42,056 bases of DNA. Origin: Eledone cirrhosa. Its lineage: Eukaryota. The DNA is taken from assembly GCA_964016885.1 (NCBI GenBank), contig CAXHJY010000999.1:1-42056 (forward strand), written 5' to 3'. Positions 2,956 to 25,420 of this stretch are shown piece by piece. The position numbers and the translations under genes are program-made. Within the stretch, counting starts at the first letter, position 1. Every line of letters starts with the position of its first letter. The notes under the pieces were generated by a model. It was given only the letters and a program-made list of their open reading frames with translations, had not been told where the DNA came from and searched no databases.

Positions 2956-3115
2956 GGAACGAGTAGGACCCCGACGGCTGAGCTCAAGCCTTTTCGACCG
3001 GCTTGAGCTCAGCCGTCGGGGTCATACTTTTTCCCATTACCCACTCTACTACCCTAAGTATTGAATACTTTGGTGCGTCATGGTCCACCTGGTTCCTTAC
3101 CACATTTCTTCCGTT
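2956..3115 (+). mobile_element. Family A fold-back element, copy 1
   Basis: Inverted short arm GGAACGAGTAGGACCCCGACGG..., then forward arm plus ~80-nt tail ending CCGTT; (TA)n on both sides. Confidence 0.8.
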
Positions 3116-3146
3116 ATATATATATATATATATATATATATATATA

Positions 3147-3346
3147 GGAACGAGTAGGACCCCGACGGCAGAGCTCAAGCCGTTTCGACGGCTAATTCTG
3201 GACTCACCATTCAGCTCAAGCCGTCGAAACGGCTTGAGCTCAGCCGTCGGGGTCACACTTGTTCCTATTACCCACTCTACTACCCTAAGTATTGAGTACT
3301 TTGGTGCGTTATGGTCCACCTGGTTCCTTACCACATTTCTTCCGTT
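3147..3346 (+). mobile_element. Family A fold-back element, copy 2, with hammerhead 3' half
   Basis: GAAA-CGGCT-tgagctc-AGCCG-TC at 3226-3248 gives an HHR GAAA box, helix III and GUC. Termini match copy 1. Confidence 0.8.
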
Positions 3347-4524
3347 ATATATATATATATATATATGAGAGAGAGAAAGAGAGGGGGTAGAGTAAGAGCT
3401 AGAAAGGTAGAGAGAGGTGGATGTGCACCTATACATACACAAACACGCCTTAACATAGACACATAGACAGAAACACCGCTATACAGAGAGTGAGAGAGAG
3501 AGAGACTGAGAGAGTTTATGGTGAGAAAGAGAGAGGGGGAGGGTGGGAAGAGCGAGAGAGGGGGAGGGTGGGAAGAGCGAGAGGGGGGGGGGGGTGCAGC
3601 TCTACATAACATGAAGCCAATCTAACAAGAGTGGATGAGATTTCTAATTCCGCCTCTGACCTCCCTGTCACATGTGTTGATAATACAACCTAGAGAAATT
3701 AGATAGCATATCATAGGGGTCAGGGGTGTGTGTATATATATATATATACACACATATATATATATATATATATATATATATATATATATATACACACATA
3801 TATATACACACACACGTACATACATATATATATATATCCATATAGGTATATGTATATATACATATATTTATGTGTGTGTATATATATATATATATATATA
3901 TATATATATATATATATATATACATACATATATATATATATATACACATATATATATATATATATATATATACACACACACATATATATATATATATATA
4001 TATATATATATATATACGCACACACACATTCATATATATATGTTATATGCATATATATGAATATGTATATATGCATATATGTATATATGTATGTATGTAT
4101 ATATATGTATGTATGTATGTATATATATATATGTGTGTGTGTGTGCGTGTGCGTCTCTTTCTACACATACATGTAGCACACGTTCAATCACTACTATAAA
4201 TAAATATGCATAGTTATGATATATGCACAAACTCACACACACACACACATACACACGCACCGACACACACACATACATATATATATACATACACATATAC
4301 ATACACCCACACATACGTGCACACTCTCACACACACACACATGTACACATATACACATACTTCGTAGGAGAGATAAAGACATTTAAACATAAATAAATGA
4401 TAAATAAAGACTAAAGATAAATATATAAATATATCAGATGTATTGCTAAACAATTTTTGATATGGTAGCATTGTTATATATATATATATATATATATATA
4501 TATATATATATATATATATATATA

Positions 4525-5085
4525 TTAGAAAGATCGAGTATCGAAAAATCGGCGCACGAGTTTACGATAAACAAAATTCGAAATGAGCGGCAGAGGGCTC
4601 AATAATTCAGATGAATCAGAGCTATAACTATCGTTAAAATACCGTCACATATAGAACAAGTCTACAATCAACCATACGATAAAAAATCGATAATAGAAGA
4701 TTCGGGACAAACAGATAAAAAATATCAATAAAACAATACATCAATAATTTAAATGAATGTAAAATCATACTCGGACCCACTAGAAAGGTGTTAAATCTAG
4801 CTTCATGGGTTTCTGTAAATCCTTAGACTGTACTCTATCAGCTCACATATAAATATAAAAGCCTACTAGAGCAAGAGGAACGGAGTTTACTTTCTCAACG
4901 AGCTTTTTTCCTAGCGGAAAAGGGGCTAACTACCAGTGAAAAACGCACATGGCATTAGACAAGGGAGATAACCTCTATATCCGCGAAAACTATTCGAGGG
5001 AATGTGGAAATACACATATCGAATAAGAGTGCTCAATAGACATGTTAAAATAAAACAAAAGCTATTCATCACTCAATAGAATCAC
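4525..5085 (-). mobile_element. Family D, ~0.6-kb non-coding (TA)n-associated element (diverged subfamily)
   Basis: Colinear homology by eye to 25421-26124 and 18555-18758, e.g. ACTTTCTCAAC, GACAAGGG, AAAAGCTATTCATCA.TCAATAGAATC. Confidence 0.65.
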
Positions 5086-5094
5086 CACACATGA

Positions 5095-5133
5095 TGAACC
5101 TGAAGATTGCGAAAGCATGAAAGTACTTGTTCA
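5095..5133 (+). ncRNA. Minimal type I hammerhead ribozyme
   Basis: TGAAC-CTGAAGA-tTGC gaaa GCAt-GAAA-GTAC-TT-GTTCA: perfect 5-bp helix I and palindromic GTAC loop III. Confidence 0.8.
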
Positions 5134-5665
5134 ATTAACACTTAACATTTAATATTCTATCATACTATTTCATTCTAATACCATTATAAATTTTAAAGGA
5201 TTGTAAATAAAACGAGTAAATCAGACAAAGTTGGAATTCCTCTTATTAATATAATCTTCTATACACAATCATACACACCCGTGTATATCTATCTATCTAT
5301 CTATCTATCTATCTATCTATCTATCTATCTATCTATCTATCTATCTATCTATCTATATATATATATAGTGGTAGAACACTGGAAGGTAATATCCGTAGTG
5401 GTAAAGCACTCAGTCCATGGGACAAGTTAGGTAGAAGTGGTTACACAACAGTTAGTTCACCATACCGAGAACATATATATATATATATATATATATATAT
5501 ATATATATATATATATATATATATATATATATGTAGAAGTTCTATTTAAATTGTTGGGATACAACAAGCAAATATTTTTATAACTGATATAAAGCACTCA
5601 ACAAATTATTGGAGTAAAAATACGATATATTAACAAATGGAAACTATATTTATAAAACCCTATTA

Positions 5666-5728
5666 ATTTCATTATACATATTTCAAGGACACCAAGTTAA
5701 ATTATGGTGTGCTTTCATCAGATAAAAT
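5666..5728 (-). ncRNA. Type I hammerhead ribozyme (family B)
   Basis: ATTTTAT-CTGATGA-AAG cACACCA..TGGTGTc CTT-GAAA-TATGTA-TA-ATGAAAT on the minus strand. Confidence 0.78.
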
Positions 5729-5866
5729 ATAATATAGAGCAGTTTTATAAATAAATATTGACATACCCTTAAATAATGCGACCATTTCTATCCGGGAGCT
5801 TCCAACAGAAATGGTCGCATTCTTTAACGGTATGTCAATATTTATTTATAAAACTGATCTATATTA

Positions 5867-23560: not shown

Positions 23561-23566
23561 AATGGT

Positions 23567-23760
23567 GGACCACTTCAAAAGGTATGCTTGCTGGGAACAG
23601 CAAGAACCCTCCGATACGTCCTGAATATCTGAGGCTGTAGGTAGCGGCTTGATGTTCATTTCAACAAACTTTCCAGTTAAATAACATCAATGACTGAGAC
23701 TCAAAGAACGACAACAACAACAACAACAACAACAATAATAATAATAGTTATAATAATGAT
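23567..23760 (+). mobile_element. Second R4-like LINE 3' end
   Basis: LQKVCLLGTARTLRYVLNI* (stop 23630-23632), short UTR, (AAC)n(AAT)n tail. Confidence 0.75.
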
Positions 23761-24360
23761 AATAATGTTAATGGCAATAATGGTAATAACAATATGGTGA
23801 TGGTGATGGTGGTGATGATGGTGATGATGATGATGGTGATGGTGATGATGATGGTGATGATGGTGATGGTGATGATGATGATGATGGTGATGATGATGAT
23901 GGTGATGATGATGATGGTGATGATGATGATGGTGGTGATGATGATGATGATGATGATGATGATGGTGATGATAAGCTGACGTTGACCTTTACGGAATATA
24001 ATATTTGGAGTTGTATACTGTGTAGCAGAAAGGTGTCTTTTATTAAATTATTCTTCTTGGTGTTCGTCTTGTTAGAATATTTCAAAATCTGAAGAACACA
24101 CACAAACACATACACTATATATATACATATATAAAACATACATGTGTGTATACCTCTCTCTCTCTCTCCCCCCCTCTCTCTCTCTCTCTCTTTCTCTCTT
24201 TATATATATATATATATGTGTGTGTGTGTGTGTTGTGTGTGTGTACGTAAAAGGTAAACAGAAATAACAACACAATCGGTACAGCATATAGAAGGGATAT
24301 GCATGTGTGTAGGGACATGTCTCTTTATGTGTGAGTGTGTGTATATATATATATATATAT

Positions 24361-24751
24361 CTAGGGCGGGTAAAATTCCCGAGATCCATGGACGAGTTCT
24401 CTCCAGCGGTCTCTGTCCCTCATTATCGCTGCCATGCCCTGCGTTTCCAACAGACCAGTGTCTATCCTTAGGGCATCAACATACGTTAACATTGGTCTTC
24501 CTCTTCCAGTGTGTCCATGTAGGGGCTCCCACAGGAGCACTGAGTGCAATGTCAACTCTGGATGTCGGTGAGCATGTCCAGCTAACCTCAGTCTCCTCTG
24601 TGTCACTTTTGAGCTGACATTTTGGAGGGTCCCATACAGCTCTGAGATTTTCATCCCCTGTGTATACTGATTAATGTTCAGAGCCATCCTCACCATTCTC
24701 GTGTAGCACCCATCCACCATCTGAGTGAGTTTCTTGGTCAGTGTCCAAGTC
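24361..24751 (-). mobile_element. RTE-clade LINE 3' fragment, same family as 17844
   Basis: WTLTKK..DGCYTRM.RMALNI..RRLRLAGH..RGRP..; stop codon abuts (AT)n. Confidence 0.85.
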
Positions 24752-24900
24752 TATATATATATATATCTGTGTGTGTGTGTAGGAGCATGTCTCTATATGT
24801 GTGAGTGTATATATATATATATATATATATATATATATATATATATATATAAAATAAAGTTAAATAAAAGTCAAATGATTAAAATTTAGCTTCGTTTATT

Positions 24901-24955
24901 ACTGCTATATATATTTCAGTGACAGCCATCTTTGGCTGTGACCTCTTCAGGCAGT
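24901..24955 (-). ncRNA. Type I hammerhead ribozyme (family F)
   Basis: Inverted copy of 25178-25232. Confidence 0.82.
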
Positions 24956-25177
24956 TTGAATTAGTATGGTATAGACAAGTACATATGTTGTTTAGGTGTA
25001 TGATATTGTCAATACTCTGATATGCCCAGTTCCTTGCTGGGTTGTTAATTCACTGGGGAACTGGAGTCATATGACTCCAGTTCCCCAGTGAATTAACAAG
25101 GAACTGGGCATATCAGAGTATTGACAATATCATACACCTAAACAACATATGTACTTGTCTATACCATACTAATTCAA

Positions 25178-25232
25178 ACTGCCTGAAGAGGTCACAGCCA
25201 AAGATGGCTGTCACTGAAATATATATAGCAGT
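25178..25232 (+). ncRNA. Type I hammerhead ribozyme (family F)
   Basis: ACTGC-CTGAAGA-GGTcACAGCCA aaga TGGCTGTcACT-GAAA-TATATA-TA-GCAGT, then AATAAA. Confidence 0.82.
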
Positions 25233-25420
25233 AATAAACGAAGCTAAATTTTAATCATTTGACTTTTATTTAACTTTATTTTACACTACTCCGGAGTAAC
25301 CAAACCAACCTGCGCACTTCGTCGAGTGCTCCAGCCTGCATACTGAGGTGTTGGTATACAACCAACATAAACTCAAAATCTATATATATATATATATATA
25401 TATATATATATATATATATA

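Follow-up and report, generated by a model that had tools for sequence, protein, structure and literature searches.

Penelope-like elements (PLEs) that carry an endonuclease (EN+ PLEs) are described as having inverted pseudo-long terminal repeats (pLTRs), a tail that is optional on one of the two and head-to-head palindromes, for which a self-priming hypothesis was proposed (PMC3846280). According to PMC8557442, the tail is often found at one end only, hammerheads occur in all but Naiad and Chlamys, Naiads are biased towards (TA)n and Neptune towards microsatellites, Octopus Naiads are listed with a (TA)n preference, and target duplications are unreadable inside (TA)n. For PAc, a Poseidon element of Anolis carolinensis, PMC11167929 describes two starts of reverse transcription that bound the tail, cutting and extension of both target strands, and a predicted dimer. 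Minimal hammerhead ribozymes were found in pairs on opposite strands, 100-700 bp apart (PMC4209133), retrozymes have been tied to pLTRs (bioRxiv 10.64898/2026.07.22.740005), and PLEs make up 6.83% of the O. vulgaris genome (PMC13282606). Here we describe short palindromic inserts between (TA)n runs, grouped into families A to F, in a 42,056-nucleotide (nt) stretch of microsatellite-rich Eledone cirrhosa DNA (assembly GCA_964016885.1, contig CAXHJY010000999.1; the window). Taking all PLE-based explanations together, the inserts work like, and very probably are, insertion products of EN+ PLEs. Their layout, with an inverted pLTR, a one-sided tail, (TA)n targeting and two start sites of reverse transcription, is already published. 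The families themselves are probably undescribed, and possibly the only new detail is that element and target match over 2-5 nt at the short end.

Inverted arms were sought by self-BLAST of the segments between TA runs, families were grouped by cross-comparison, and ends were read from arm-to-arm alignments and a junction table; an inverted-repeat finder run on the whole window gave output swamped by microsatellites. Inverted arms were detected in A1-A4, B, C, D, E and F, with E values of 2e-9 to 1e-153 for A1-A4, B, C, E and F, and four A copies and four B copies were grouped. A first-pass annotation of the window had proposed that each insert is an inverted repeat with both 3' ends facing outward into (TA)n and with one arm 50-100 nt longer than the other. 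The orientation holds for A1-A4, B, C and F; in E the polarity is assumed, and at the long end there are just 7 nt of TA before unique sequence begins. Eight of the nine palindromic inserts combine a tailed long arm with a short arm, the tails (53-99 nt overall) measuring 80 nt in A, 90 nt in B, 59-60 nt in C, about 53 nt in E and 99 nt in F. The exception is family D, which lies in the same range and had been left out of the annotation: both of its arms end at one site, giving two equal ends. No open reading frame was found between the arms or inside the inserts.

The outer ends of family A are constant, with the short ends at the same base in four of four copies and the long ends likewise, and the centres and arm lengths vary from copy to copy. 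A1 (2956-3114) has a short arm of minus sense with its 3' end at 2956 and a long arm of plus sense with an 80-nt tail (3035-3114), and contains the 3' half of a hammerhead with GAAA, a palindromic helix III and a GTC cut site. A2 (3147-3345) stands in tandem with A1, separated from it by 32 nt of TA; its minus-sense short arm (3' end 3147) reaches hammerhead stem II, its plus-sense long arm ends in the tail 3266-3345, and a short scrambled piece lies at the centre. In A3 (6776-6944), a minus-sense long arm running from 6927 to 6776, with full stem II and the tail 6776-6855, is joined to a plus-sense short arm (6922-6944) through a 6-nt inverted match beside the hammerhead cut site. In A4 (15932-16123), a minus-sense long arm with tail 15932-16011 meets a plus-sense short arm in the loop of stem II.

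The palindromic B insert (5533-5975) is centred near 5797, with the tail of its minus-sense long arm at 5533-5622, its short end at 5972, and hammerhead-like motifs at 5721 (minus) and 5875 (plus). The other three B copies are solo arms, at 7049-7169 (plus, short end), 13860-13935 (minus, short end at 13860) and 14129-14325 (minus, long end at 14129). The short ends 5972, 7169 and 13860 coincide, as do the long ends 5533 and 14129, confirming the earlier statement that solo B copies share both end classes. C (6371-6722) consists of a minus-sense short arm (6371-6445) and a plus-sense long arm with a degenerate hammerhead core at 6468, a shared part at 6588-6661 and a tail at about 6663-6722. 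The head-to-head insert D (18224-18485) carries a full minimal hammerhead at 18386 (plus, cut after 18440). E (18834-18992) is a 105-nt palindrome (18834-18938) with its extension at the uncertain long end. F (24852-25380) is centred on 25066, with a hammerhead in each arm (24950, minus; 25183, plus) and the tail at 25282-25380; its arms are identical save for an 8-nt indel. Substitutions separate the arms of A1, A2, A4, B, C and D.

The hammerhead assignment rests on a custom pattern scan for type I motifs that required the core, stems I and II, a palindromic helix III and a UH site, with locally shuffled windows as the control. Six strict sites were found in the window versus one in 30 shuffled windows. 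Four of the six lie in B (7071, full and minimal, cut after 7117), D (18386) and F (24950 and 25183), and the other two are at 1088 and 40431. A looser scan also picked up both arms of the palindromic B insert, the degenerate C core and one motif at 5100. In family A, stem II, GAAA, the palindromic helix III and GTC were recognised by eye, and the upstream core is missing, leaving a 3' half; the pattern scan found no hammerhead in E. All hammerhead motifs in the inserts point outward. The arms are thus arranged head to head, and the inserts read as head-to-head, 5'-truncated pieces of PLE pLTRs, with the polarity of E assumed. Together with the published layout and the two ends of family A described below, this bears out the proposed match to the inverted-pLTR-plus-tail structure of PLEs. 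An optional 3' tail between two fixed ends, family-wide for A, and a minimal type I hammerhead in the pLTR, by strict pattern in B, D and F, are further PLE features. A partial tandem of the kind that forms direct pLTRs was seen in a separate element (760-1699) and not in A-F. Judged from sequence, A-F would be severely 5'-truncated insertions of several EN-bearing PLE families, of which only the hammerhead-bearing pLTR end was copied.

Two results weigh against this assignment. No Rfam hammerhead family matched F, D or B, and none was among the 150 of 291 matches listed, which consisted of microsatellite-driven miRNA noise only; minimal type I hammerheads needed a descriptor of their own in PMC4209133. 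In addition, Pfam and protein searches of neighbouring stretches yielded no reverse transcriptase (RT) or GIY-YIG gene that could be linked to any family; the open reading frame of EN+ PLEs combines a telomerase-like RT with a GIY-YIG endonuclease. Pfam gave no meaningful match in 12 frames of 4526-5112 and 1069-1402, two matches below the cut-off being rejected, and none of 379 candidates was homologous when one frame of 4527-5111 was compared with longer proteins. The sequence after the F hammerhead is not an open frame. Exact family A patterns were absent from the metagenome and viral contigs searched, and family motifs were absent from the supplements of PMC13282606 and PMC8557442 (four motifs in the latter).

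Compared with the EN+ PLEs of PMC3846280 and PMC8557442, the inserts share the head-to-head repeat, the palindromic junction, the tail at one end, strong 5' truncation and the occurrence of solo copies. They differ in having no open reading frame between the arms and tails of 53-99 nt rather than the published 30-40, and any target duplication, which in EN+ PLEs varies in length, is unreadable in (TA)n. As in metazoan PLE hammerheads (PMC4209133), the motifs combine a CUGANGA/GAAA core with a long helix II, a short helix I and a tiny palindromic helix III, and occur as opposite-strand pairs 100-700 bp apart; the closing pair of stem II in B, D and F is A-T or G-T instead of the usual G10.1-C11.1. 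With PAc (PMC11167929) they share two fixed ends that lie downstream of the hammerhead and bound the tail, an AT-rich target and the usability of both target strands, but PAc cuts ATT and starts at a non-homologous site, whereas the stumps share 1-5 nt with (TA)n at their short ends. The microsatellite bias is shared with the Neptune and Naiad clades (PMC8557442). Since Naiads are described as having an N-terminal endonuclease and no canonical hammerhead, and B, D and F have hammerhead motifs, families A, B, D and F appear to fit a clade with a C-terminal endonuclease, such as Neptune, in which a CX2-5CxxC linker lies between RT and endonuclease, better than Naiad; this clade placement is provisional, and E could still fit Naiad. 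In the EN-deficient Athena and Coprina elements, a short target-complementary stretch near the hammerhead assists priming, but these elements attach at telomeres (PMC8557442).

The family-wide distribution of ends was read from four of ten listed sequencing runs (X1, X4, X8 and X9), aligned to A3 (6766-6950) at 82% likeness. X8 and X9 are restriction-site-associated DNA (RAD) libraries whose read counts include duplicates, and the RAD design and minimum alignment length bias end ratios; X1 is from another organism, and X4 may be related to the assembly source. Family A recruited more than 23,000 reads from less than 2 Gb of RAD data. A loose (TA)n stood before 6853 in 2,729 of 23,012 reads (X8), 2,270 of 23,784 reads (X9), 63 of 16,369 contigs (X4) and two of 36 contigs (X1). 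This joint marks the short end, since 6853-6855 is the shared ATA. Another 1,087 and 1,267 reads joined at 6865, where the consensus is (TA)n followed by ten divergent letters, and were therefore assigned to the same short site. Read depth in X8 was 10,335 over the TA past the long end compared to 14,261 within the tail, and no other TA end inside the tail was seen among the best 21 of 557 rows. The ends of family A are thus bimodal across the genomic family, with two fixed positions, as the first-pass annotation had expected of a 3' end mapping, and not random. About 7,000 read ends pile up at 6906, on an AATT in stem II; this was rejected as an element end, as we take the AATT to be the RAD cut site.

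It had further been claimed that the short arm stops where the element itself has a TA. We measured this overlap as the continuation of the element that matches (TA)n, against random positions in the same arms in random or best phase; the cases had been chosen by the annotation, which makes the P values generous. The overlap was 3 nt in A, 3 nt in B, 5 nt in E and 2 nt in F; C was scored as 1 nt, with 3 nt after a mismatch between the arm and TAT. For the five families, P was 0.004 in random phase and 0.044 in best phase. Without E these values became 0.047 and 0.25, and with the tandem element at 760, whose 3' end overlaps (TA)n by 5 nt, 0.0002 and 0.006. At the short site the long arms of A1 and A4 read CATT and TCTC and so lack the TA, although it is the majority state of the family, with no variant at 6853-6855 among the 40 of 55 rows listed. 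Apart from the short ends, the tandem element's 3' end is the one place where overlap is seen. Unused alternating TA runs of greater length occur in C and in B, which has 11 of at least equal length, and of three TAT sites in the 3' region of A one is used. Folding of A, B, C, E and F revealed no common stem-loop or other shared structure at the short site, which was mostly unpaired in A, E and F, paired in B and mixed in C. TA is thus modestly enriched at short ends, though weakly supported, and does not define the site. Because the significance depends on the null and on E, and because B and C pass over longer TA runs, something other than TA seems to fix the end position, TA being an aid at most. 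A literature search that left most subscription papers and older PLE reviews outside its coverage turned up no report of priming by TA microhomology, or of arms from mixed templates, in PLEs.

We lean slightly towards an explanation of the stumps in which both (TA)n ends prime on PLE RNA. The PLE ribonucleoprotein (RNP) would cut both strands of the (TA)n tract, the target being observed and the cutting modelled on the in vitro work with PAc. Reverse transcription would then begin from each 3'-OH, at either of two fixed positions within the element that lie downstream of the hammerhead and enclose the tail; the two fixed ends are observed, and their role as starts is presumed. The sites would be set by the position of RNP and RNA, and the 2-5 nt UA/UAU at the short site would probably aid pairing of the TA primer without choosing the site, as the overlaps weakly suggest. 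Both complementary DNAs (cDNAs) would stall early, in or just beyond the hammerhead, and would be joined through self-complementary sequence (stem II in A4, the 6-nt inverted match in A3) into a head-to-head palindrome with a copy-specific centre, the centres being observed and the joining conjectural. One end priming alone would leave a solo short or solo long copy. Dual-end priming also occurs in L1 twin priming, in which both target ends prime; that process yields adjacent, non-overlapping inverted pieces and, unlike the stumps, not two copies of the same end.

The centres of A1-A4 differ, and the inversion is therefore made anew at each insertion. The arms of A1 and A2 provide a hint of two templates, because they carry different family alleles. 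Across their final 17 nt, the A1 and A2 short arms are the same as A3 (0 differences) but depart at three sites from their own long arms, which have alleles in common with A4. These alleles are common in the X8 reads (6861 G>A, 3,151 of 9,103; 6866 G>T, 1,769 of 9,234; not phased). Priming from both (TA)n ends is plausible, since PAc extends both strands in vitro (PMC11167929) and the A1 and A2 arms carry different alleles. As for the two fixed TA-microhomology priming sites suggested by the first-pass annotation, the TA match is weakly supported and, within the inserts, seen at short ends only, and better-matching TA runs are left unused.

Several observations count against priming from both ends with TA pairing. 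A1 and A2 are neighbours, so their allele signal may be one event; gene conversion is possible, and 6861 is a CpG site. Independent choice of ends poorly predicts eight long-plus-short inserts among nine (binomial 10/512 = 0.02; 0.06 if E is dropped and A1/A2 are counted once), and some coupling between long and short ends is left unexplained by independent priming. Long ends also outnumber short ends by about 2.7 to 1 in the X8 reads, a ratio affected by the RAD and alignment-length bias. The overlap in A, B, C and F gives only P = 0.25 under the stricter null, and PAc starts reverse transcription at a site not homologous to its target (PMC11167929).

A more specific proposal, possible but doubtful, is that in hammerhead-bearing EN+ PLEs that target (TA)n both ends of the cut prime on two separate RNA templates, one at the long site and one at the short site by rule, with telomerase-like pairing of the TA primer over 2-5 nt with the UA/UAU of the RNA, and that the hammerhead hairpins splice the cDNAs into a palindrome. 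If true, this would account for the microsatellite bias as well as the inverted pLTR, two points that PMC8557442 names as open questions, and would contrast with the homology-free start of PAc.

A single primer, which we think rather unlikely, would suffice if the first cDNA, begun at the long site, folded back on a hairpin or short palindrome, copied itself, stopped at the edge of the protein-bound tail and was linked to the (TA)n end on the other side through a microhomology of 2-5 nt. At the short ends, the match to TA would then be an end-joining scar and the coupling seen in eight of nine inserts would be built in, a view close to the self-priming argued for in the Discussion of PMC3846280. 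The arms of E and F, identical or nearly so, speak for such self-copying, as do those of B, which are 94% alike compared with 84-87% to other copies. The centres of A3 and A4 lie on self-complementary sequence, but annealing of two cDNAs and fold-back both predict variable, self-complementary centres. Fold-back sits less well with the solo short B copies at 7049-7169 (TA on both sides) and 13860-13935, with the different family alleles in the A1 and A2 arms, and with the in vitro finding that both tail boundaries are starts of reverse transcription (PMC11167929).

Miniature transposable elements of the inverted-repeat type (MITEs) typically combine TA targets with inverted repeats. The inserts share these features, and fixed asymmetric palindromic units (MITEs, Helitron-type elements or retrozyme masters) moving whole and favouring TA could in principle produce them; non-LTR retrozymes carry type I hammerheads as well (bioRxiv 10.64898/2026.07.22.740005). 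We consider this highly improbable. MITEs and other DNA transposons have symmetric terminal inverted repeats (TIRs) and a constant interior, whereas the inserts have asymmetric ends, centres and arm lengths that differ in every A copy (four of four), and solo arms; the true MITE-like elements of the window have short symmetric terminal repeats. Retrozymes are direct tandems with complete hammerheads and are themselves argued to be PLE derivatives (bioRxiv 10.64898/2026.07.22.740005), but A-F are inverted, and 760-1699 has a second hammerhead that breaks off in stem II. Similarly improbable is a later deletion, in which both arms were first long and slippage, or repair of an unstable palindrome through microhomology, removed one tail from the internal TA up to the flanking (TA)n. 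PLE copies commonly show microhomology-mediated deletions (PMC3846280), and the 8-nt indel of F lies between short direct repeats. However, one of three TAT sites is used in four of four A copies and in thousands of reads, B and C leave longer TA runs unused, and the very young F already has a short end; the single sharp short end in the family A reads largely refutes this account. Assembly or library chimeras and fold-back artefacts are hardly credible: no single read or contig in the four runs spans a whole palindrome and opposite-strand joints are few, but the arms differ by substitutions, both end classes occur in independent raw reads and in contigs of a second organism, 41 X4 contigs by our own reading continue beyond stem II as in A4, and artefacts would not centre on hammerheads.

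The signature is a known one for PLEs and matters mainly for repeat annotation, as such stumps are easily misfiled as MITEs or simple repeats. This genome is a good test bed, with many family A copies and inserts so small that their two ends and their centre can be read at once. Two primers versus fold-back as the source of inverted pLTRs, and the role of primer-template pairing in (TA)n targeting, are countable here.

Other elements in the window carry related motifs. The element at 760-1699 (minus strand, TA on both sides) is a direct partial tandem of a 311-nt repeat (1.5-mer, 100% identical) with its 3' end, 760, at an internal TATAT of the unit; its hammerhead at 1088 has long helices, and it resembles a young, non-autonomous PLE or a retrozyme-like unit. 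A small TA-flanked element at 40372-40450 (minus) consists of little more than a full type I hammerhead whose helix I is long (core 40431). The sequence at 5085-5281, in which a very small hammerhead stands at 5100 (plus), is probably a solo PLE stump; it ends at (TATC)n and adjoins a decayed RT fragment like that of a long interspersed nuclear element (LINE) at 4526-5090. We rejected the view that 4526-5285 is a head-to-head chimera of two PLE families, as 4526-5090, with a GIRQG-like motif seen by eye, is presumably a decayed LINE RT.

Further repeats were noted. Fragments at 17844-18101 and 24361-24751 are 95% identical, resemble a LINE 3' end and each end in (TA)n. Two pieces of one repeat family stand in opposite order at 18562-18758 and 25424-26121, and one of them also matches 5008-5084. 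MITE-like elements of two families with short symmetric TIRs lie at 10377-10448, 40541-40643, 17522-17656 and 31177-31549, most of them adjoining TA runs. A palindrome of a different kind (270 nt, 37051-37319) consists of two tail-to-tail copies of a common repeat resembling a short interspersed nuclear element, which also occurs at 12373, 25680, 30978, 31700 and 31893. Minisatellites occupy 20742-23447 (74 nt), 26384-27929 (42 nt), 35971-36682 (73-75 nt) and 8066-9373 (69 nt); the 42-nt unit holds CTGAAGA-like words and gave no hammerhead in the strict scan. A GC-rich stretch at 38600-38880 looks by eye like what we take to be the C-terminal end of a CRE-type non-LTR element.

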